Below, piece by piece: positions 19,889 to 52,741 of a DNA stretch of 64,000 nt; the first letter of the stretch is position 1; every line of letters begins with the position of its first letter. The notes under the pieces are model-generated. The model was given only the letters and a program-made list of their open reading frames with translations. It made no database searches and was not told the origin of the DNA. The translations under genes were made by a program, and so were the position numbers. The stretch comes from a virus, in the UHGV virus genome UHGV-0178594. One strand, written 5' to 3'.

Positions 19889-20418
19889 AAGAAGGATTTA
19901 AAGATAATTCAGGTGCAGCGCAAAACACTGGAGAAATCATTGAGGCATTTAATGGGGAGGAAATGCCCACTTTATTCAGAAAAGAATATCCGCGAAAGAG
20001 TAGAGCACTAGAATTGCTGTTTATCATTCTGTTTTTCGTGTTGCTGATACCAATAGCCTCAATATTAGTGACTGTTCTAATGGGGAAAGTATTTGAACCG
20101 TTAGTTGAACTGTATATCGATATAGTGTGGACCCCATTCAGGAAGCTACACAATAAAATTAACCCACATAAGGAAACAGATATGGCAACTTTGAAAAAAG
20201 AAGATCGTTTTACCAAAAAACAAATCGCCGAGGCAAAAATCCTCGATAACAACGGAACCTACTTCATCAACGGTTCCATTCTTCCTGTTTATATCAATGA
20301 AGATGGAGACACTTACCTTATTGAAGAGTACGAAAAAGGCGAGCCGAGCGAACACCTCATTAAAGATTTGTTCGCGGATGGCGTTATTGTTGCTGTTAAT
20401 CCGATTGGCTACAACTAA
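19885..20418 (+). CDS. hypothetical AT-rich membrane protein (possibly two small genes)
   Basis: Hydrophobic segment LLFIILFFVLLIPIASILVTVLMG; second possible start at MATLKK (~20182). Confidence 0.35.
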   Translation: MKEGFKDNSGAAQNTGEIIEAFNGEEMPTLFRKEYPRKSRALELLFIILFFVLLIPIASILVTVLMGKVFEPLVELYIDIVWTPFRKLHNKINPHKETDMATLKKEDRFTKKQIAEAKILDNNGTYFINGSILPVYINEDGDTYLIEEYEKGEPSEHLIKDLFADGVIVAVNPIGYN

Positions 20419-20428
20419 AGCATAAATT

Positions 20429-20941
20429 ATGACCAGTATTACCAGAGAACAGGCCAAGAAAATTATTGAAGCTGCCGATGAGGTTATTAGTGCGCTTGCC
20501 GGAACTAACGAGGATGTTCACCCTGGTAGCGATAACATGCTACGTCTGTGGGATGACCTGAATGACCGTTACGCGCCGCCGGAAGTTGTGCGTGAGCTGG
20601 CGCGTATCGTGCTGGCATCGCTGGAAGCGGAGCCTGTAGCGTGGCGATATCGCTACGTGAAAAAAGGCGTTACGGACTCTCAGGGGGAGCCGTGGGTTGG
20701 TGACTGGAAATATGTACCGACAAAAGAGGATTGCAACGACAGGCCGAGCTATGAGATTCAGGCCTTATTCACTGCCCCGCCAGTCCCGGTGACATCAGAA
20801 GGACTGGTTAAAGCCGTGCGTTTCTATGAACAAGTTAAGCGTGAAAATCCGCCAGTCGAAACCGGAGCATGGAAAGACGCGATTGACTGGGTGCTCAAAG
20901 AGGCCTGCCAGGTTGTAAACACTGGCATCAAAGGAGACTGA
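20429..20941 (+). CDS. hypothetical protein
   Basis: 170 aa; shares LASLEAEPVA...PPVPVT module with 21149 ORF. Confidence 0.45.
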   Translation: MTSITREQAKKIIEAADEVISALAGTNEDVHPGSDNMLRLWDDLNDRYAPPEVVRELARIVLASLEAEPVAWRYRYVKKGVTDSQGEPWVGDWKYVPTKEDCNDRPSYEIQALFTAPPVPVTSEGLVKAVRFYEQVKRENPPVETGAWKDAIDWVLKEACQVVNTGIKGD

Positions 20942-20942
20942 T

Positions 20943-21152
20943 ATGGCTATTGCCGCAAGTTACACCATGCATCTCTATTGTGATTGCCTCCAGTGTACAG
21001 ATGGCAAATATAAGTCGCCAGACTTCGGTGAGTATATCGGTACGTCATGGGCTGGCTGTGCAAAAGAGGCGCGCAAAGATGGCTGGCGAATAAGCAAAGA
21101 CAAAACGCGTGCTTTTGCGCCCGGGCATAAAGTTTTGAGGATTAACAAATGA
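20943..21152 (+). CDS. hypothetical small Cys-rich protein
   Basis: 69 aa; CDCLQC...C. Confidence 0.4.
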   Translation: MAIAASYTMHLYCDCLQCTDGKYKSPDFGEYIGTSWAGCAKEARKDGWRISKDKTRAFAPGHKVLRINK

Positions 21153-22213
21153 CCACTTTAACCGACAAAGAACTGATTAAAGAAATCAAAGAGCGAATCG
21201 GCAGCCTGGACGTGCGAGACAATATTGAGCGCCGTGCTTATGAAATTGCTCTGGCATCGCTGGAGGCAGAGCCAGTGGCAAAAATTATAGCTCACTACCC
21301 ATTAGGAATTGACGTAGGCAAACAAAAGTTCGTACAGGCCATTGGAGAGCTTCCTGACTTTGGAGGATATCTATTCGCCGCTCCACCTGTGCCGGTAACA
21401 CAGGCTAATGTCGCGCAAGCAATTGAAAATCTTAAGCAGAAGTTAGTGGAATGCAATCGCTATAACTACTGCGCAGATGCAGTTAAAGATGTTGAGGATG
21501 CCAGCCGCGTCTTGGCACTCCAAAATCAAAATATGTCAGCACCGATAACGCAGGAGGCCATTGAAAACGCAATTGAATATATCCGCAGTATTGCTTTTCA
21601 CATCGATGAAGACGATTACCACGGCAAGCATATTGCGTATTTCATGCGACAAGCACTGGTCTGGCTGGAAGGGCATTCATGCAGCGACGACAGACAGGAT
21701 AAAGCCGAGAATCAACCAGTACGCGGTAACCAGGCTGCCGAATCCAATCGCGGTAATGAGTGGACCGGCAATCCTGATATTGATAACGCCATCATCATGC
21801 TTGACCGCATAGATACGGCGGAAAGTTACGATGATGACCGTATTGAGGCTGTTAAGGCTGTTTTGCGTAGACTGGCAGGCAACTCTCCGGTAATTCCGGA
21901 TGGTTTATCCACGGTATGCGCTGAGGCTTATCAGGTTGTAGGAGTTATGGCAGATGCGCTTGGTGTATTCGGTGATGCAGCAGTACAGAAAGTTCTGGAT
22001 AACCTGTCACAGCAAAAACTTGTTCACAGAGATGTGCTGCCGTTCTCGCTTCCGGTAACTCCGGATGGTTGGGTTATGGTTCCTAAACAGGTAACGCCGG
22101 AAATCAGCAACGCGATAAACGTTGTGGGTCAACGCTGTACATGCGGAAATTGCTCTCAGCGGTTGTGGGATTTATTACTCGACGCCACACAGCAAGGAGT
22201 TAACCGTGGCTAA
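21149..22213 (+). CDS. hypothetical protein
   Basis: 354 aa; ATGA-coupled; N-terminal module paralogous to 20429 ORF. Confidence 0.5.
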   Translation: MTTLTDKELIKEIKERIGSLDVRDNIERRAYEIALASLEAEPVAKIIAHYPLGIDVGKQKFVQAIGELPDFGGYLFAAPPVPVTQANVAQAIENLKQKLVECNRYNYCADAVKDVEDASRVLALQNQNMSAPITQEAIENAIEYIRSIAFHIDEDDYHGKHIAYFMRQALVWLEGHSCSDDRQDKAENQPVRGNQAAESNRGNEWTGNPDIDNAIIMLDRIDTAESYDDDRIEAVKAVLRRLAGNSPVIPDGLSTVCAEAYQVVGVMADALGVFGDAAVQKVLDNLSQQKLVHRDVLPFSLPVTPDGWVMVPKQVTPEISNAINVVGQRCTCGNCSQRLWDLLLDATQQGVNRG

Positions 22214-22389
22214 CCTGCAACTTATCCTCAAAGGTGAAAAGATTTGAGGATTCGCATCATTAATAACACCGACAAGCATCCGGATGATTATTTGGATTGC
22301 TCGTTAGCAGAGCGCGTGGAATTGATATAAGAGAATCTCCGCGCATCGGCAACACACAGCTAAATATGTTCGCAATAAAGGGTAAATCA

Positions 22390-22791
22390 ATGGCTAAATT
22401 TCGGAGAACTATTATTTTTCTGGCAATGTTATCTGCCTGCCATTTATCACATGCATCGGTTATTGTTGCAACCGCCGCAACAACGGCAGCAATTAGCGCC
22501 TCAGCCGCAAGCGAGCAGGAGCAACGCACTGCAATCAATGCATCCGCAAATACTACCACTGTAGCAGTCACGCAAGATAAGCCAAATATAGGCTTTGTTA
22601 CTTGCGGAAAACGGTATGGAGAGACGGTCGGTTCTCTTGGTTGCGCAGTGTGGCATGACGAACGAGCAGAAATTCCGTGGAAATCATGGCCTGGTTACAT
22701 TCTTGGCGAAAAGATACCCACCAGCTATGAAGTAAATGCTATTTCGTTCGACCAATATAACAGAGTCGCAACGGTCTACTTTTCTTATTAA
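22390..22791 (+). CDS. secreted protein (signal peptide)
   Basis: Internal start gives MAKFRRTIIFLAMLSACHLSHA signal-like N-terminus. Confidence 0.4.
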   Translation: MAKFRRTIIFLAMLSACHLSHASVIVATAATTAAISASAASEQEQRTAINASANTTTVAVTQDKPNIGFVTCGKRYGETVGSLGCAVWHDERAEIPWKSWPGYILGEKIPTSYEVNAISFDQYNRVATVYFSY

Positions 22792-22797
22792 CACGGA

Positions 22798-23097
22798 GTG
22801 ATTATGTGGCGCGGTAATAATCATGGCAGAAGCCATATGATACTTACCGAATATAAGCTAGACCACAAAACCAATAAATCACGCTCAGTATATTTGCTCC
22901 GGCACAATAGCCGCGTAAGGAATACCGTGCTGGAGCAATATCTGACCGTTGAAATGGATAATTTCGGGAATTTCAAGCCAACAATATCGCTTGATGATTT
23001 CCCTCGTGGTTTAAGCGAAAGAGAAGCAATGCTGAAATTAGCAGAATGGCTACAAAGATTGAGCATTGTTATTGAAGATAACTGGAGTCAACCATAA
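22798..23097 (+). CDS. hypothetical protein
   Basis: 99-aa ORF. Confidence 0.4.
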   Translation: MIMWRGNNHGRSHMILTEYKLDHKTNKSRSVYLLRHNSRVRNTVLEQYLTVEMDNFGNFKPTISLDDFPRGLSEREAMLKLAEWLQRLSIVIEDNWSQP

Positions 23098-23273
23098 TGA
23101 AAAACAGAAAGAAATTTTGGATTACTTTTTTGTTTGTATGCCTTTGCGGTTCATTTGTTTTGTTGGCTGGTGGTGTTGAATGGGGAACGATGGGATGTGG
23201 AGTTGGGAGTGGCTTTACGCTTCTTGCAGCCTGGGTTATCGCTGGCGTTCAGTCTGGAGGAGGGTATTACTAA
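23097..23273 (+). CDS. small hydrophobic protein (58 aa)
   Basis: Hand-found ORF below track cutoff, MKNRKKFWITFLFVCLCGSFVLLAGG...; start overlaps upstream stop. Confidence 0.3.
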   Translation: MKNRKKFWITFLFVCLCGSFVLLAGGVEWGTMGCGVGSGFTLLAAWVIAGVQSGGGYY

Positions 23274-23352
23274 GTAATTTTATTACCCCCTTCATAACGG
23301 ATATCACTCTCGTGATAACGGATATTCCAATTTTGATAACGGATAAAGCCAA

Positions 23353-23562
23353 ATGAGGCATTTTTTAAGGCTGGCATTTGTTCTGGCGCTATTTGCTCCT
23401 CCGGCTGCGATGGCTGGAGAACAGCAGCACTGTGTAACTGAATCAGAGAATCTTGTAATAGTCACTCAATGCGATGACGGAACGGTGACCGTGGTTAATG
23501 TACGAGATAACCGTGTAGCCGTGTGTCGTAAAGGCGAATCATGCAAGGAGATAAAGCTATGA
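23353..23562 (+). CDS. small secreted protein
   Basis: MRHFLRLAFVLALFAPPAAMA signal-like N-terminus, Cys-rich mature part. Confidence 0.4.
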   Translation: MRHFLRLAFVLALFAPPAAMAGEQQHCVTESENLVIVTQCDDGTVTVVNVRDNRVAVCRKGESCKEIKL

Positions 23563-24323
23563 CCAAAATCACTAAAGAGCGTATATCAGAGATTATTTCC
23601 CGTATCGAAATGTATGGTCACGGTGCTGGATATACGGCAGATGAAGTATTGGCGCTTGCCAAAATAGCGTTAGCGCCTTGCAAGGATGGTAACGGAATGA
23701 CACTGATTGACTTTTTAGTGAAGGAATTATCTAAGGGAGCTGGATGGCCTGATGGAAAAGATTTTTGCTATCTACCCATTCCGCTGGCAGGTTGTAGTTG
23801 GGCTACGGTTCGTTTTGATACGCGCCATAAAAATTACCAATCATCAAAGAATTATTCCTTTGATGGCATTATTTGCGATATCAGTGACCTTGATCGCAGT
23901 GCGTTTACATCGGTTGTCACTCGTGAACAATATGAAGCAGCTCGCATAGCGTCTCAGAAAGTCGAGTTCAATGGTGATGAACTTGAAAGTAAGGCTTACA
24001 AGTTAGATTTTGAGCAATGGCTGGAACAGCAACGCGGGAAAATCGATGTGGACTGCGGTTGTGTGTCTGCGGAAACATTCATGCACTGGTTGCGGGTAGC
24101 TTATGAGGCTGGCAACCATCCGGATTTTCCGGATAGTTCCCAACAATCGCCCAAGAAAAGCGTAAAAACCTCTCTGGAAAGAGGCTATCTTGAGGCCGCA
24201 TTAAAGATTAAGCCGGGCCATACGCTAGGCGTCATTGATGCCATGTTGGTTCATGAAATGGCTAAGGCTTTATTGCCACTGGTAGCAGATCAACATGAGG
24301 CGAGTCATGCCAACGAAAGCTGA
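23559..24323 (+). CDS. hypothetical protein
   Basis: ATGA-coupled start (MTKITKERIS). Confidence 0.45.
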   Translation: MTKITKERISEIISRIEMYGHGAGYTADEVLALAKIALAPCKDGNGMTLIDFLVKELSKGAGWPDGKDFCYLPIPLAGCSWATVRFDTRHKNYQSSKNYSFDGIICDISDLDRSAFTSVVTREQYEAARIASQKVEFNGDELESKAYKLDFEQWLEQQRGKIDVDCGCVSAETFMHWLRVAYEAGNHPDFPDSSQQSPKKSVKTSLERGYLEAALKIKPGHTLGVIDAMLVHEMAKALLPLVADQHEASHANES

Positions 24324-29689: not shown

Positions 29690-30718
29690 TTATGAATCCA
29701 TCAGGCGACTATTTGCACCAACGGATGCCCCGCTACGGCGCAAATATCGCATAAGTGTTTCGGGCTTTTTCCATGTGCCTTCCTGCATGATCTCGACCAT
29801 TGACACCTGTTTCTCAGCCATATCAATTGCCGCACCAACACGCGCACTATGGCCTGTCCACGTCCGGTATCTTCCTTTGTTCGGCGTGGCATCTCGTTTG
29901 TTCAGCAACCCCCAGGCATCGCTGAATATTTTCTCCATTGCAGGTGCAGTAAGGGGAGTTGTCGTGATTCTGGCCTTATTACTGCGGTGTATTGGCGGGA
30001 ATAGCACCGCGTCCGGATGTTGACGAAGTCCGGACACCTCCAGCCAGTCGTTCAGTACGGCGGTAGTGCAACGAGAAAGCACCTTATCAAGTCCGGCGGC
30101 GGTCGTGATGGTCTTCGTGTGCGAAATATGCAGCGTTACAGTGTCACCTGTTTGGTCCAGATCTCCGACGCGGATGCGCGAGATTTCTGACATACGCATC
30201 AGGGTATTGTATGCCACGAAGAGAAACGCCCGATTGCGCAGGTCCACCAGCCGCTCGGAACGGGACAGCAATACGTCGAGCAATTTCAGATCATCCCACC
30301 GCAACGGTATAGCCTGGCCTGTTCGCTCGCCTTTTTCCGTTGCCGCTTCGCGCCGGATGCGCCGCATGGCCAGAGACACACTTTTATCGTCCGACAGCGG
30401 CGGGAGGCCACATTGCGAAAGCAGCATGTTAAGCATGGCATAGTGCTTATCAATGGTGGTCGAAGCCAGATCGGCCTCATGCAACTGGAGAAGATACTCG
30501 CGGGCCATTTCCGACGTAATCGGGAACCAGGGGCGCTGGCGCGAGTTACACCACCGCGCCCAGGAATGAAACACCAGACGGAGATCACGAAGTGTATTTG
30601 GGGCATAAGCTCCCTGGTCGTTCATGAACTGCATAAAGTTTTTTGCAGCTTCCTGGTATTCGGTGCCAATATCGCGCAGAAAACCACCAGAACCGCCGGA
30701 GATAACTAGTTCACCCAT
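29690..30718 (-). CDS. Cre-like tyrosine site-specific recombinase
   Basis: Extended similarity to P1 Cre (WFP...YLL.L...SLAMRRIRRE...RNRAFLFVAYNTLMR, SGHSARVGAA.DMA); 342 aa. Confidence 0.8.
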   Translation of the reverse strand: MGELVISGGSGGFLRDIGTEYQEAAKNFMQFMNDQGAYAPNTLRDLRLVFHSWARWCNSRQRPWFPITSEMAREYLLQLHEADLASTTIDKHYAMLNMLLSQCGLPPLSDDKSVSLAMRRIRREAATEKGERTGQAIPLRWDDLKLLDVLLSRSERLVDLRNRAFLFVAYNTLMRMSEISRIRVGDLDQTGDTVTLHISHTKTITTAAGLDKVLSRCTTAVLNDWLEVSGLRQHPDAVLFPPIHRSNKARITTTPLTAPAMEKIFSDAWGLLNKRDATPNKGRYRTWTGHSARVGAAIDMAEKQVSMVEIMQEGTWKKPETLMRYLRRSGASVGANSRLMDS

Positions 30719-30870: not shown

Positions 30871-30902
30871 TAACTTTAAATAATGCCAATTATTTAAAGT
30901 TA
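30871..30902. promoter_or_regulatory. lox-like recombination site candidate (13-bp inverted repeats, 6-bp spacer)
   Basis: TAACTTTAAATAA-tgccaa-TTATTTAAAGTTA, perfect arms; 153 bp upstream of cre-like start; arm begins TAACTT as in loxP. Confidence 0.5.
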
Positions 30903-32153: not shown

Positions 32154-32175
32154 GCCCCGAATCGCCGGGGCTTTT
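32154..32175 (+). terminator. rho-independent terminator
   Basis: gccccg-aatcgc-cggggc hairpin followed by TTTT. Confidence 0.55.
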
Positions 32176-33682
32176 AAATGTCAATATCAGGAATATCCAC
32201 TTCTGCCAACACCTGATCGCGGAATGTTGCGAGTTCTGCGCCAATGTCTTCATTAGCAGGCACGTAATCCACCAGCATAGTGAAGCAGTAGGTATCCCAT
32301 CTGTCCGGTGACTTGATGTTTAACTTCTGCCGCATGTGCTCCTTGCGCATCATCGCTACCTTCCCTTCTTCGTTAAGCATATACGGGATTTTTGATGCCT
32401 GATCTGCGGTTTTGGGGTCACTATCGATACGCATACGCCCGGATTTAATGGCATCCCCTGCCATAATATTGGCGTAAGCACGCTGATTGACAAAGCGTTC
32501 TCTGTCTCTTAGCGCAAACATAGGCTTACCCCAACGGATGCGAACGGGATTAGCACCACGGCGGACAAGCTGCGCACACGTATCTGAACCAAAGCCATCA
32601 GCATCCACAGCAATGGTGATGTTCGGGTATTTATCAGGAGTGCATTCGTTATAGATAAAGTCGGCAAAAGCCAACGGGTCCATAGTGCCTGGCATCTCCA
32701 GTATCTTAAAGTTCACAACGCGTCGTTTCTCACGATAACCGGATACTTTGCATATATTGAGCACCGATTTATCGCGACCATTACCGACGTCAGCGGTCGC
32801 TACCCAGCCCCAATCTTTCTCCAGCAACACTTTACGCCGTGCGGCGCGGTCGCACTCATCACGACCAAGCAAATACCCGTTAATTGCACGCGGGAACTGG
32901 CCCAGCACCTTAACCATGTACTCCAGCGAATCCCTGCCGCCGTACTCCAGCAATTTCTCACGAATAAAGCTCGGTTCAACGAATGGTGATTCTTCAGAGT
33001 TAAGGACTATTGCCGTCCAGACACCTTCCGGATTGCCTTCTGCCTTTGCCCTTGAATGGTGAGATTCATAAAAGTAACCGCTTGGACGCGTAGGCTGGGA
33101 AAGCATGAGCATACGGTTATCTTTCTGCGTTAACGCCCCCGTCATGACGTTAATCGCCTTATCGGATATGCCCGATGCTTCATCAAGAATTAGCAGTAAA
33201 TGCTCCGCGTGCTCCCCCGCCAGTGCCTCTTCGTTACCGAGTCGATAACCTTTACAGAGCACTTCCCATATCCCTTTACGGGAACGCTCATAAAACATGG
33301 TGTCAGACAGGACAAAATAGGTCTGTAACCAGCCGTGGCGCTTAACAGCATTCGCCCAAAACTGTTTCACGTATTTGAATACGCCTGTTTTTACCTGGCC
33401 TATTTTGTTCGCAACAATAATGACGCGGGCGTCGGGGAACAGGATCATAAAAATTAGTAGCAACATCGCGGTAAGGGACGACTTACCCGTTCCGTGTCCG
33501 GACGTAACGGTCGTCCTGCTTCCCGTCTCCTGCACTGACTGAATGATCTGCTGCTGCTGGTGGGAGGGGAACATCCCAAAAATATCGACAACCGCCTGGG
33601 TAAAGTTGTATCGATACCTGATAACCATATCGCGCCAACGTGGATCACTGGTGACGCACTTAATCTTACGACCACCAGCCAT
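32174..33682 (-). CDS. terminase large subunit (PacB-like)
   Basis: 502 aa; Walker A-like TSGHGTGKSS and overall terminase ATPase/nuclease layout; downstream of PacA-like gene. Confidence 0.7.
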   Translation of the reverse strand: MAGGRKIKCVTSDPRWRDMVIRYRYNFTQAVVDIFGMFPSHQQQQIIQSVQETGSRTTVTSGHGTGKSSLTAMLLLIFMILFPDARVIIVANKIGQVKTGVFKYVKQFWANAVKRHGWLQTYFVLSDTMFYERSRKGIWEVLCKGYRLGNEEALAGEHAEHLLLILDEASGISDKAINVMTGALTQKDNRMLMLSQPTRPSGYFYESHHSRAKAEGNPEGVWTAIVLNSEESPFVEPSFIREKLLEYGGRDSLEYMVKVLGQFPRAINGYLLGRDECDRAARRKVLLEKDWGWVATADVGNGRDKSVLNICKVSGYREKRRVVNFKILEMPGTMDPLAFADFIYNECTPDKYPNITIAVDADGFGSDTCAQLVRRGANPVRIRWGKPMFALRDRERFVNQRAYANIMAGDAIKSGRMRIDSDPKTADQASKIPYMLNEEGKVAMMRKEHMRQKLNIKSPDRWDTYCFTMLVDYVPANEDIGAELATFRDQVLAEVDIPDIDI

Positions 33683-35046
33683 TAGTCATCCTCCGGCTGG
33701 TCTATCGCAATCTCGTCATCTACAGCATCAAAACCGGTATCCCCCGCGTCATAATCACCGTAGATATCAGCCGTGGCGTAAGGGTCTATATTCAGGTCTT
33801 CATCATTGGCCTCAAATTCACCGGCTTTACGTTCTCCGTTCCGGTCGTAATCCCCCATCCCAAGCCTATCAACGATTTTCGCTACTTCAGCCCGGCGTTG
33901 TGCAAGCCATTGTGGGAGTCCAGCTTGTTGCTCGGCAAACTGCTTCGCCTCTTTATCCAGTTGCTCATCATCAACATCGTTAACGTCAGAAACCGGAGGC
34001 TCCAGAAGTGAGATCGCTTTTGCCGCTCGTGCCGCCAGGATAGCCGGGACACTGACGCCCTGCCGCTCGATATATTCAGCAACACCTATATCATCCAGCT
34101 CCTCGCGCTCACGCATACGTATAGCGGCGGCGATAACCCTGGCGGCGCGTGCGTCAGCGCCAATGCGATACTCAATCTCCTTGCCACGCTGCTCGGCTTG
34201 TAGGCGGGCAATCGCCAGTTTTTCTCTGGCCTCAGCCTCCCTGAATGCCTGCTGACGCGCGCCCTGCGCAAGTTTTTCATCCCCCTGGCGTAGCTTCTGC
34301 TCGTTCTGATAGATGGCTGCCAGCCTGGTGATAAAGTCATTCATGTAGTAGGCCGCATCGCTGATCAGTCCGAGAAGACGCTGCCCTGGGTGCATCCCCT
34401 CTGGCTGTGTATCACCGAGGGCGTCAATCTCTTCCTGTAGTCGCTCCGCTTCCTGGTCAACGATAGCCTGATACTGAATTGCTCGTTCCTGCGCCATCTG
34501 AATCGCAAGTCGTAAATGTTCAGTCGCGCCGTTCTTCATCATCTCACGGGCGACGTTGGTGGCAGGCAAAGTGGTGCTTTGAGCTGATGAATCAGGGATC
34601 ATTTGCAATGATCCCTTGTTTCGTTGGGCTTTATCGCTGCTTTTAGGGATCATTTCTCCCATTTCATCACAAAATGATCCCTTCACATCCTTGTGTATCT
34701 TGTTGTTATTACTTGGCTTTTCTTTGTGATCCGCATTTTGTTTTTGCGGCATGGCGCGGAACCGTCCACCAGCCAAAGATTTGTCAGTTTTTGTAAATTC
34801 TGTGCTTTTATTAGCCTTTTTTTGCTCTTTTTTTGAGCCGGTGGCGCTGCTTTTTGCGCGCTGTTTTGTACTTTTCCCGGTAGCCTTAGCTTTCGCCTTA
34901 ACCTCATTTTTTTTCATATTGAGATGCTTTCTGGCGGTGTTAAAGCTGAGGTCATGCTGCTCGCAATATTCTTTTATGGTGATCCCGGTTTCTTCTCTTA
35001 ACTCCAGGAACTTAGCTCGATGCGCTTCCCAGTTAATTAACGTCAT
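33682..35046 (-). CDS. terminase small / pac-recognition subunit (PacA-like)
   Basis: N-terminal HTH-like segment; GATC hexamer cluster inside the gene as in P1 pacA; ATGA-coupled to pacB-like. Confidence 0.55.
   Translation of the reverse strand: MTLINWEAHRAKFLELREETGITIKEYCEQHDLSFNTARKHLNMKKNEVKAKAKATGKSTKQRAKSSATGSKKEQKKANKSTEFTKTDKSLAGGRFRAMPQKQNADHKEKPSNNNKIHKDVKGSFCDEMGEMIPKSSDKAQRNKGSLQMIPDSSAQSTTLPATNVAREMMKNGATEHLRLAIQMAQERAIQYQAIVDQEAERLQEEIDALGDTQPEGMHPGQRLLGLISDAAYYMNDFITRLAAIYQNEQKLRQGDEKLAQGARQQAFREAEAREKLAIARLQAEQRGKEIEYRIGADARAARVIAAAIRMREREELDDIGVAEYIERQGVSVPAILAARAAKAISLLEPPVSDVNDVDDEQLDKEAKQFAEQQAGLPQWLAQRRAEVAKIVDRLGMGDYDRNGERKAGEFEANDEDLNIDPYATADIYGDYDAGDTGFDAVDDEIAIDQPEDD
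34594..34731. promoter_or_regulatory. candidate pac site: cluster of GATC-containing hexamers (TGATCC)
   Basis: GGGATCATT x2 and AATGATCCC x2 as inverted pairs plus TGATCC at 34726; five GATC in ~135 bp inside pacA-like gene. Confidence 0.45.
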
Positions 35047-35435
35047 AGGGAAGCCTCACGTTTTTTCACAGCGGCGTTCCATAGCTGGTTAGTCATCGCC
35101 ACCAACTGACGCTGCTCCTTTCGTAATTGAGCTTCTATCTTTCGGTTGGTGTTTTTCACCAACAGCCGACCGAATTCAGGAGTGCGCCCGCGCACCTTGA
35201 ACTGGTATCCATTCAGGCCATGTAACCAATATTTCCGGGGGTATACGCGGTCGTCTATTTCGCAAATGGCACGACTGGAACGAACAAAAAAACGTATGAT
35301 GTTATTTACGTTTACGCGCGACACATGAAGGTGAGGATATTGTGCTTTTGCACGGCTGGTGATTTCGGTGACCGTCAGATAGCAGTTAGCCCTGATCATG
35401 ATATCCGCTATTTCGGCGCTACTGATTTGCTCCAT
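35043..35435 (-). CDS. hypothetical protein; positional analogue of P1 Lpa (late promoter activator)
   Basis: 130-aa ORF immediately upstream of and coupled to pacA-like gene. Confidence 0.35.
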   Translation of the reverse strand: MEQISSAEIADIMIRANCYLTVTEITSRAKAQYPHLHVSRVNVNNIIRFFVRSSRAICEIDDRVYPRKYWLHGLNGYQFKVRGRTPEFGRLLVKNTNRKIEAQLRKEQRQLVAMTNQLWNAAVKKREASL

Positions 35436-35543: not shown

Positions 35544-35926
35544 TACCAGCGGGATAAACGAACAACATGCTTAACTTTTGCCTCCCACTTCCCTTTATGT
35601 TTGTTGATCACCGCCTGCGCCATCTTCAGACTGGCTTCAAAATCGGCTTTTCGACCACTATTGCCCACCAGCAACGCTCCGTCTATTTCGGGTAAGCATA
35701 AATAATCCTGCTCGACGGTAAGCGGCATTGATGATGTAACCTGGCAGGCTTTCCATCTGAAGCGTATGCGCACACTCCTGACTGACATCACGACATAACC
35801 TGATATTGTGCTCTTGTGTCCGGCGTCTGTGCGTGTAGCCTTGCATGATGTTATCTTGCAGGTGATGATGTCCCAACCAATGTGCATCGCATCCTCAGTG
35901 CGTAATTTAGTAGTCTCGTACATCAA
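35543..35926 (-). CDS. hypothetical protein
   Basis: 127-aa ORF; stop abuts palindromic site 35512-35543. Confidence 0.35.
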   Translation of the reverse strand: MMYETTKLRTEDAMHIGWDIITCKITSCKATRTDAGHKSTISGYVVMSVRSVRIRFRWKACQVTSSMPLTVEQDYLCLPEIDGALLVGNSGRKADFEASLKMAQAVINKHKGKWEAKVKHVVRLSRW

Positions 35927-36498
35927 AAAACCTCCCAGTCAGTAGCGATAATATCAACTCCAGTTGCAAACCAGTCTGTCTGCGCCTGTAAATCCCCATT
36001 CATCATTACCAGGCGAGGCATAACCATCACATCACAACCTTCAACAATATCGAATGCCTCTTCCGGCAGGAATTCGACGAGCTTTTCTTTGCTACCAACA
36101 CTGCCACGGAGCATCGATATATAGCTCCCTTTAGGCCATGATGTTCGCCGGGCATCAAGCCCCTTCATCATCCAGTAAAAGGCCGATGAGAACGGGATGT
36201 TCTTTTTGGCGATGAGCACGTTATTCGCTTCTGTGTACTTCAGGAACTTAACTAACCTTACCATCGACTCGGATAACGCAATGTACGGCTCATGATTGAT
36301 TGCTGACACACTTACGCCGTGCAGTCCAACACTTACCACTGTCATATCACCGTTCTGTGCAGTTTCGATGTTGACGCCTTTACGAACTAACGCTGCATAA
36401 AGCTCCTCGCGCTTTTGCGTCCAGCATTCTCGTCGCCCTATAAAGTCACTCAAAACGAGATCATCTTCTAAATACGCGTTATCGTTCGCCGTTAACAT
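35923..36498 (-). CDS. hypothetical protein
   Basis: 191-aa ORF, coupled to downstream ORF. Confidence 0.45.
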   Translation of the reverse strand: MLTANDNAYLEDDLVLSDFIGRRECWTQKREELYAALVRKGVNIETAQNGDMTVVSVGLHGVSVSAINHEPYIALSESMVRLVKFLKYTEANNVLIAKKNIPFSSAFYWMMKGLDARRTSWPKGSYISMLRGSVGSKEKLVEFLPEEAFDIVEGCDVMVMPRLVMMNGDLQAQTDWFATGVDIIATDWEVF

Positions 36499-51582: not shown

Positions 51583-52542
51583 TCATCCCCGAAAGCCCTC
51601 CGGAATTGACCAGTCTTCCCGGTCAAATTCAGACCGATAGCCACGCTGTATCATCAGGTCAAATGCTTCATTGATGGTTGCACATCCCTGGGAACCAGAA
51701 TAATCCATAGAGAAATCCAGGGCGCTGGATCGTTTGGGCTTATTCACTGTGGTAGCACTACGTAACCATGCAAATTTTTTTGCCAGTTTTTCAGCGGTAC
51801 GATACAGAGCCTGCCGTTTTGCGTACCCCTCGTCTGAACGACGCTTTGCAGCTCTCGCTTTTGCTGCCGCCAGGCAGTGGTTGGTATGTTCTTCCCTGAT
51901 TACTGTTTTTTTATCCAGCAAGCCATTATCCGCTTGAGAACTATCTGCTGGTGAAGCCTTTGGCTGAACCGCGCATGATCTTTCTCTTCTTTTGGCTATA
52001 GAGTGACTCTTATTTTCTATTGGCTGTTCATTTTGAACATGGGGGGGCTTGTTCAATTTGAACAGGGGGTTCCCAGTTTCAAAAAAATAACGAACCTTTG
52101 AAATCAACTGCTTAACCAGTTTTGTGGCGTTGGCAAATTTGATGCCCTGCTTACTCCCTATCTCCATTGCTACATGAATGAAGTGGAGAAATTGTGTTGT
52201 AAACCGGTACACGTTACACACCTGAGCATTGTTATTCGCTACCTGATGCTGCTTAACAAGCATTCCGCACTTCGTCGCTTCGGCAAATGCCCGGCGCACA
52301 GTAGAAATACTGCGTCCTGTAATCTCGGACATATCCGCATATGAGCGACGGATCATGTATTCATCGGTAGCTCCTGCCAGGTTGGCGAACTCGGCAATAA
52401 TGGCGCTATGTGAAGGGGAAAGAAAACCGCTATGACGAGCAAAAAAACTCAACTGATGACCTTTGATTTTTTTGTGGTATTCAGTGTTGTTTTTATACTC
52501 AGAAGTGTTGAAAGTAACTGAAACTGAATTTAAAATACTCAC
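51583..52542 (-). CDS. RepL-like replication protein (lytic replicon type)
   Basis: N-terminus MSILNSVSVTFNTSEY...; internal direct repeats suggest an origin inside the gene as in P1 repL/oriL. Confidence 0.45.
   Translation of the reverse strand: MSILNSVSVTFNTSEYKNNTEYHKKIKGHQLSFFARHSGFLSPSHSAIIAEFANLAGATDEYMIRRSYADMSEITGRSISTVRRAFAEATKCGMLVKQHQVANNNAQVCNVYRFTTQFLHFIHVAMEIGSKQGIKFANATKLVKQLISKVRYFFETGNPLFKLNKPPHVQNEQPIENKSHSIAKRRERSCAVQPKASPADSSQADNGLLDKKTVIREEHTNHCLAAAKARAAKRRSDEGYAKRQALYRTAEKLAKKFAWLRSATTVNKPKRSSALDFSMDYSGSQGCATINEAFDLMIQRGYRSEFDREDWSIPEGFRG
52026..52070. repeat. two ~20-bp direct repeats inside repL-like gene (candidate oriL iterons)
   Basis: GTTCATTTTGAACATGGGGGGG and GTTCAATTTGAACAGGGGGT. 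Confidence 0.35.
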
Positions 52543-52741
52543 CAGATAGTTCCGTGAAAAATCTATCTACCGTATAAATCTATGCCAGTGGATTTATACA
52601 CCCAAAAGCCGCTACTCAGCGGCTTTTGCTTTTTTTGGCAGTCGCTACCGGAGCAGTGACCGCGATCCTACTCGATCACGTGCCGTCGGATCAACAGTGT
52701 ATAAAAACACACTGTGTTAGAAAATTAAGCTAGCTTTTAGC

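Follow-up and report, generated by a model that had tools for sequence, protein, structure and literature searches.

A GATC cluster inside pacA as the probable packaging recognition element of a D6-like phage-plasmid

Where on its own DNA does a D6-like phage-plasmid begin packaging, and what marks the place? The question is raised here by UHGV virus genome UHGV-0178594, of which a stretch of 64,000 nucleotides (the window) was analysed, and in particular by a cluster of five GATC tetranucleotides inside its pacA gene, which codes for the small-terminase or pac-recognition subunit. A preliminary description of the sequence had predicted a packaging site at this cluster from its likeness to the pac site of phage P1, and what it said of P1, that pac is made of TGATC(A/G) hexamers inside pacA, agrees with both the P1 record and the literature. 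P1 pac is a segment of 161 bp (161-162) within pacA that carries seven Dam-methylatable hexamers in two groups (HEX4 and HEX3) and an IHF site; it is cut by PacA/PacB, with hemimethylated DNA being bound and cutting taking place only upon further methylation (PMC10028697).

The cluster in the window is probably the recognition part of the packaging initiation site, that is, the pac recognition element. We favour this reading because of the identity of the gene, the synteny with P1 and D6, the selection that appears to act on the GATCs and on their spacing, the recurrence of GATC clusters in the same linker-coding segment of related pacA genes and the presence of a Dam-family methylase in the lineage, and because the experimentally defined pac of P1, with its seven TGATCA/G hexamers inside pacA, is an element of the same kind.

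Repeats in the cluster and their conservation in the D6 lineage

The five GATCs start at 34597, 34610, 34648, 34676 and 34728, that is, five in 135 bp, and each reads TGATCC on one strand or the other, as had been described; they span nt 316-450 of pacA, close to the ~320-450 nt first given. Two inverted-repeat pairs had also been pointed out, which turns out to be an understatement: a single 10-mer, AATGATCCCT, recurs without mismatch at four of the five sites, two per strand and all within 90 bp, the minus-strand copies appearing on the plus strand as AGGGATCATT (Table 1). The copies form perfect inverted repeats with spacers of 3 nt and 18 nt (16 nt for 11-nt arms). Outside the cluster the 10-mer does not occur in the 64-kb window or in the 94-kb sister plasmid, and an order-1 Markov model expects 0.14 copies in the window versus the four that are seen.

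The pacA genes compared comprise 80 loci from IMG/VR, one Serratia genome, D6, P1 and several plasmids; a PacB profile search yielded the 80 loci in IMG/VR and a single locus, that of Serratia, among genome contigs, and the Salmonella plasmid pSa1423-90k (L088) was left out because its pacA is riddled with frameshifts. Within this set the D6 lineage consists of three clades (the window type, the D6 type and the L085-L087 type), which are ~64% identical over pacA nt 241-520 with no indels there; the total length of pacA varies outside the linker, and the low-complexity linker itself is free of indels. Across the three clades and this segment, the bases of the GATCs are invariant at 20 of 20 positions versus 125 of 260 for the other bases (Fisher P = 1e-6), and the same is true of third-codon positions, invariant at seven of seven inside the GATCs versus 30 of 86 outside them. 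The coordinates of the GATCs are the same in all D6-lineage variants, save that at site 2 one of the 22 distinct sequences (L053) has GACC, the other 21 having GATC. At site 1 all 22 have an unchanged gene-sense GATCA. Conservation is highest at sites 3 and 5 (sense-strand AATGATCC), where AAATGATCC and AATGATCCC, respectively, are invariant not only in the three clades but also in the Enterobacter and metagenome relatives L027/L089. At site 4 the GATC is invariant but its neighbours are not, D6 having AGATCC and the L085 clade TGATCT; sites 2 and 4 taken together, the flanks drift to TGATCT and AGATCC. Because of this drift the conserved unit is best described as a GATC with the consensus (A)ATGATCC(C); the strict TGATCC hexamer that the preliminary description took as the unit has to be given up, since D6 itself has TGATCT and AGATCC at two of the sites.

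Might this conservation belong to the protein? The PacA linker contains the peptide KGS-x-(E/Q)MIP twice, such that the cluster could be a by-product of a duplicated peptide and its GATCs incidental to codon choice; KGSFCDEMGEMIP does resemble KGSLQMIP, and MIP is invariant at both positions in the three clades. However, the synonymous positions within the GATCs never vary (seven of seven are invariant, with a background of 35% invariant), and at sites 2 and 4 a change from Gly to Arg (GGA to AGA) leaves the GATC intact. Within each pair one half is the reverse complement of the other, and the two code for different peptides in different frames, which is not what a duplication would yield; the five GATCs in fact span all three reading frames, coding for DH, GS, MI, GS and MI in turn. 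Other lineages, moreover, keep GATC clusters with entirely different peptides (DH and DQ repeats). A peptide by-product is thus highly improbable, and we regard the pattern as strong evidence that the GATCs and their spacing are under purifying selection at the level of the DNA and not of the protein only.

A second alternative takes the inverted repeats at face value as hairpins, whether in pacA mRNA, where they would control translation or stability, or as cruciforms in the DNA. The sense RNA does fold to two perfect hairpins (minimum free energy -36.8 kcal/mol, z = -3.2 versus shuffles), and sites 2/3 and 4/5 stand in inverted orientation in every clade. Neither arm shows a compensatory change, however, the sole one (pair 59-96) falling on the outer margin of hairpin 3; a pair either stays constant or is broken on one side, columns 61/94, 127/145 and 132/140, for example, being unpaired in four of ten sequences, and covariation measures do not rise above slid controls. 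Conservation is also centred on GATC, which is self-complementary in any case, and site 1 has no partner. Well as the sequence folds, a hairpin role was rejected on the missing covariation and the one-sided breaks, and we consider it very unlikely.

Two further features of pacA touch on the extent of the element. The nucleotides of the block TTTACAAAAACTGACAA hardly vary between the window, D6, L085 and L027/L089, where its surroundings cannot be aligned, and the place of the block in L027 is halfway from the left GATC cluster to the right one. One might speculate that it is a central or cleavage element, and the idea stays at the level of speculation because the block also codes for the conserved peptide FTKTD, where protein constraint is possible. 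A possible sixth GATC site far from the other five is present in all D6-lineage sequences, and L027, L034 and L046 code for the same Gly-Ile-Thr without a GATC; its conservation is hard to interpret owing to the protein constraint at that position.

Table 1. Coordinates in the window of the cluster sites, of the other conserved elements in pacA and of the neighbouring genes
Feature	Position	Strand	Description
GATC site 1	34727-34733	+	pacA nt 316; TGATCCG; codes for Asp-His
GATC site 2	34673-34682	+	pacA nt 368; AATGATCCCT; codes for Gly-Ser
GATC site 3	34645-34654	- (gene-sense)	pacA nt 396; AATGATCCCT; codes for Met-Ile-Pro; inverted pair with site 2
GATC site 4	34607-34616	+	pacA nt 434; AATGATCCCT; codes for Gly-Ser
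GATC site 5	34594-34603	- (gene-sense)	pacA nt 447; AATGATCCCT; codes for Met-Ile-Pro; palindrome with site 4, 3-nt spacer
Possible distal sixth site	34980-34986	+	TGATCCC at pacA nt 63; in the part coding for the helix-turn-helix, Gly-Ile-Thr
Conserved block TTTACAAAAACTGACAA	34781-34797	-	pacA nt 250-266; ~50 bp upstream of site 1
pacA, small-terminase / pac-recognition subunit	33682-35046	-	454 aa; holds the cluster at nt 316-450
pacB, large terminase	32174-33682	-	502 aa; directly downstream of pacA, stop/start overlap
lpa, late-promoter activator	35043-35435	-	directly upstream of pacA, overlapping; Pfam PF25716 BPP1_LPA, E = 2.5e-50
rox site (D6 equivalent of P1 loxP)	30871-30902		TAACTTTAAATAATGCCAATTATTTAAAGTTA; exact match to the annotated D6 rox
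Dre-like tyrosine recombinase	29690-30718	-	adjoins rox; position and length as D6 dre

GATC clusters across the P1 supercluster

GATC clusters are found in the same part of pacA, nt ~150-480, which codes for the linker after the N-terminal helix-turn-helix, in all 11 lineages examined from the supercluster, P1 included, whose PacB proteins are 56-100% identical; this is so despite the fact that the linker cannot be aligned between lineages. Enrichment was calculated for pacA nt 150-480 against the background of each locus, and the Poisson P is 8e-6 in L027, 5e-5 in L034, 6e-5 in both L046 and P1, 2e-4 in L004, 7.5e-4 in L055 and 1.5e-3 in L050, followed by 0.005 for this pre-specified linker in the window, 0.011 in L029, 0.055 in L056 and 0.14 in L047. 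Ten of the lineages are bipartite: 80-200 bp separate a left cluster, which begins at nt ~155-200, from the right one at nt ~325-400. The D6 lineage, to which the window belongs, has the right-hand cluster alone, expanded to five sites, and in the window pacA nt 64-315 holds no GATC, though the left cluster of the ten other lineages falls in this interval.

Most lineages use P1-like TGATCA/G hexamers, often with a 12-bp periodicity that codes for Asp-His or Asp-Gln repeats, and an asymmetric motif flanked by CC(C), on both strands, is seen in the D6 lineage, in the Enterobacter-type L027/L089 and in L055. In the Pantoea-type loci (L034-L045 and L046) six or seven TGATCA sites stand at a strict 12-bp period in pacA nt ~154-247 and code for (D-H/Q-x-x) peptide repeats, a striking case of a protein linker shaped by a repeat in the DNA. 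PacA residues ~35-42 (window ~34921-34944), the putative recognition helix, read NTARKHL in two of the types with the CC-flanked motif, D6 and L027, and STGRKKL in the third, L055; the lineages that use TGATCA have NTARR(E/Y/Q)L, or NTVRRQL in L047. It is possible that PacA helix and site motif co-vary, with at most two independent events behind the pattern.

Gene neighbourhood, methylase and other features of the window

Its sequence marks the window as a plasmid prophage of E. coli that resembles D6 and is syntenic with P1. The gene order lpa-pacA-pacB-c1-rox-dre is that of D6, and P1 has it likewise with lox; from the cluster to rox is 3.8 kb along the direction of pacA transcription, and from pac to lox in P1 is 4.0 kb in the same relative orientation. 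The gene that had been called pacA-like merits the name, as its product shares 74% amino acid identity with phage D6 PacA and matches the terminase family phrog_1711 from end to end (E = 7e-167) and small-terminase phrogs in its N-terminal part. Similarity to P1 PacA extends over the full length and is weak (~20% identity, E = 5e-8 in a pairwise BLASTP); a tblastn search of a phage collection with PacA returned D6 as the sole match and not P1, and searches of Pfam, NCBIfam and PDB gave no sequence match, PHROGs alone recognising the protein. PacB is 92% identical to D6 PacB and 56% identical to P1 PacB over 488 aa, and it belongs with the large terminases of phrog_2 (E = 4e-41). At the nucleotide level the pacA-pacB pair is 80.5% identical to that of phage D6. 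E. coli plasmid NZ_CP085065.1 carries a pacA with 99.6% identity to that of the window, and a match to the latter is found in 121 plasmids of PLSDB. In the near-identical plasmid the counterpart of the Dre-like gene carries a tyrosine recombinase annotation; the product would act on rox and cyclise packaged DNA.

That near-identical plasmid, NZ_CP085065.1, also encodes a D12-class (Dam-family) methyltransferase (PF02086, E = 2e-53), whose gene has ~70% nucleotide identity to the D6 adenine methylase gene and to dmt of P1/P7. The open reading frame lies at 91889-92920 of the plasmid (L091:41889-42920), on the minus strand, with 344 aa, and no gene is listed there in the PLSDB table. The E. coli host has a Dam of its own.

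Three other features of the window may be recorded. A second, intergenic group of GATCs (52664, 52674 and 52689, three within 30 bp, plus 52763) precedes a repL-like gene of lytic replication (51583-52542, minus strand) by ~120-220 bp, beside the inverted repeat ACAGTGT...ACACTGT and just past a terminator-like hairpin at 52604-52638; it could be a Dam-sensitive promoter or operator, or an origin-related element. Positions 20207-23891 form a stretch of 3.7 kb without any GATC, where ~12 would be expected at the density of the window, with normal GC content (43-53%) and with open reading frames (e.g., 21149-22213 and 23541-24323) that have no Pfam match; because the closest plasmid has a type I hsdRSM system in the equivalent slot, this segment seems to be of foreign origin, a slot for variable cargo or for defence. 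Finally, two genes upstream of lpa/pacA, at 35923-36498 on the minus strand, is a gene whose product, 191 aa long, has a domain like Tad2 (Thoeris anti-defence 2; PF11195, E = 4e-10).

The cluster as a probable pac element and its relation to known systems

The prediction of a packaging site is partly supported, by the genomic context, the selection on the GATCs, their recurrence and the methylase, and it falls short where P1-type layout, an IHF consensus and a strict TGATCC are concerned. Several observations weigh against a pac function. GATC density, which had been proposed for comparison with the rest of the element, is ~37/kb locally versus 3.3/kb window-wide and makes the cluster the densest of the window, and by itself this is statistically weak: when the 216 GATCs of the window (a slight depletion versus the 250 expected) are placed at random, some cluster of five in 135 bp arises in ~19% of trials (P ~0.19), so that density is not significant window-wide and the weight has to be put on the repeats and their conservation. 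The layout is that of a single 135-bp cluster whose largest gap is 48 bp, as opposed to the 4 + 3 hexamers of P1 around a centre of ~90 bp, and the left cluster that follows the helix-turn-helix elsewhere is absent; with no hexamer-free centre of ~90 bp, the position of the cut cannot be placed by analogy with P1. A scan with the simple IHF consensus WATCAANNNNTTR (at most one mismatch), which recovers the annotated P1 site and which a degenerate site could escape, gives no match over pacA nt 120-520 in the window, D6, L085 or L027. The window has no Dam-family gene, and none of its open reading frames of at least 80 aa contains D/N/S-PP-Y/F/W/H, the catalytic motif IV of DNA amino-methyltransferases. 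The D6 records in GenBank (MF356679 / AY753669) carry no pac annotation, and full-text literature searches, which did not cover the D6 genome paper, where an earlier description is possible, returned no description of a D6 pac site. Lastly, L053 is a natural variant that lacks site 2, and since Met-Ile-Pro and Gly-Ser are conserved as peptides too, some of the conservation may lie at the protein level.

Some of these points would suit a DNA element that responds to Dam and SeqA in another role, for example in the methylation-dependent timing of pacA/pacB expression or in the sequestration of the region after replication, with the real pac recognition or cut site being the TTTACAAAAACTGACAA block or lying outside pacA. 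Conservation at the DNA level says that the GATCs matter and not what they are for; the lack of a bipartite layout and of an IHF consensus in the scan would be no surprise, the small cluster upstream of repL implies that GATC clusters are not exclusive to packaging, and a separate conserved block without GATC stands 50 bp upstream of the cluster. This stands in contrast to the situation in P1, the only characterised relative, where the homologous clusters are pac recognition elements. In addition, the asymmetric flanks conserved at sites 3 and 5 exceed the needs of Dam or SeqA, for which GATC alone would do, and so point to a sequence-specific protein such as PacA, and the cluster sits inside a coding region with no promoter context identified. 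On balance, we judge a role other than packaging to be unlikely.

If the cluster is indeed the pac recognition element, it most likely functions like P1 pac, as a rearranged version and not as a new kind of element. Following the P1 model, the N-terminal helix-turn-helix of PacA would bind the repeated (A)ATGATCC(C), laid out as two inverted pairs plus an upstream single site, and bound PacA would recruit the large terminase PacB for a cut nearby, which would be made only with both strands carrying methylated GATC adenines, the methylation coming from host Dam or the phage's own Dam-family enzyme. Fresh, hemimethylated copies would be bound and not cut, with the result that about one pac cut would be made per concatemer. 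Headful packaging would then proceed in the same sense as pacA transcription, crossing pacB and c1 before it reaches rox; given that order, rox would come to lie inside the terminal redundancy of the first headfuls, where Dre could circularise the injected DNA. Binding by PacA, cleavage and its exact position, dependence on methylation and the direction of packaging, which is taken from P1, are what we infer for this cluster.

A more specific proposal, which is tentative and perhaps somewhat doubtful, is that the D6 lineage has remade a P1-type pac as a one-sided, IHF-independent site, composed of inverted pairs of the asymmetric Dam-methylatable AATGATCC and read by a PacA with a changed putative recognition helix. 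Were that so, D6- and P1-type pacases would be mutually orthogonal and P1 and D6 phage-plasmids resident in the same cell would avoid cross-packaging; the pair would offer a natural system for the co-evolution of a small terminase with a methylation-gated site, as well as a second, orthogonal signal for phagemid packaging in E. coli.

Even the general reading, if confirmed, would have consequences. It would supply a packaging signal for the D6-like phage-plasmids that are common in E. coli, Salmonella and Shigella, it would show which host and plasmid DNA is open to transduction by such elements, and it would make D6-based phagemids or packaging-defective helpers buildable. For P1, the hexamers have been recoded synonymously for packaging tools of this sort (PMC10028697). 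It is fair to stress that the cluster opens no new class of biology, and a P1 specialist would expect something similar; the informative parts are the altered motif, the one-sided layout and the retention of GATC clusters throughout the supercluster.

How, then, does the cluster compare with what is known? Its likeness to P1 pac lies in its place, in the part of pacA that codes for the linker directly behind the N-terminal helix-turn-helix and with pacB adjoining, in its several closely spaced repeats that contain GATC (Dam sites), and in its surroundings, with lpa upstream and pacB, c1 and a lox-type site ~4 kb downstream along pacA transcription. In P1 (NC_005856) four TGATCA hexamers at pacA nt 194-233 and three TGATCA/G hexamers at nt 324-352 flank the annotated cut sites and IHF site, which lie ~255-285 nt into the gene. 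Unlike the palindromic TGATCA/G of P1, the motif of the window is asymmetric, on both strands and in inverted pairs, and its TGATCC shares just the GATC(A) half with the P1 hexamer.

The closest counterpart is pacA of phage D6, where GATCs occur at nt 316, 368, 396, 434 and 447 in the same orientation and with the same spacing, within the same gene order and with an identical rox. It differs in that nucleotide identity through the cluster region is ~64%, and D6 lacks the perfect 10-mer palindromes because its flanks at sites 2 and 4 are different. The Enterobacter and metagenome relatives L027 and L089, whose PacB is 83% identical, share the ATGATCC(C) motif family, and sites 2, 3 and 5 as well as the TTACAAAAACTGACAA block align with the window. 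They are nevertheless bipartite in the manner of P1, with three sites at nt 157-181 and five at nt 380-471, ~200 bp apart, whereas the window and the rest of the D6 lineage are without the left cluster and have a lineage-specific site 1 that L027 lacks. Overall, the comparison suggests a cis-acting site and its terminase diverging together inside coding sequence, with GATC clusters being kept while their flanks, number and layout change.

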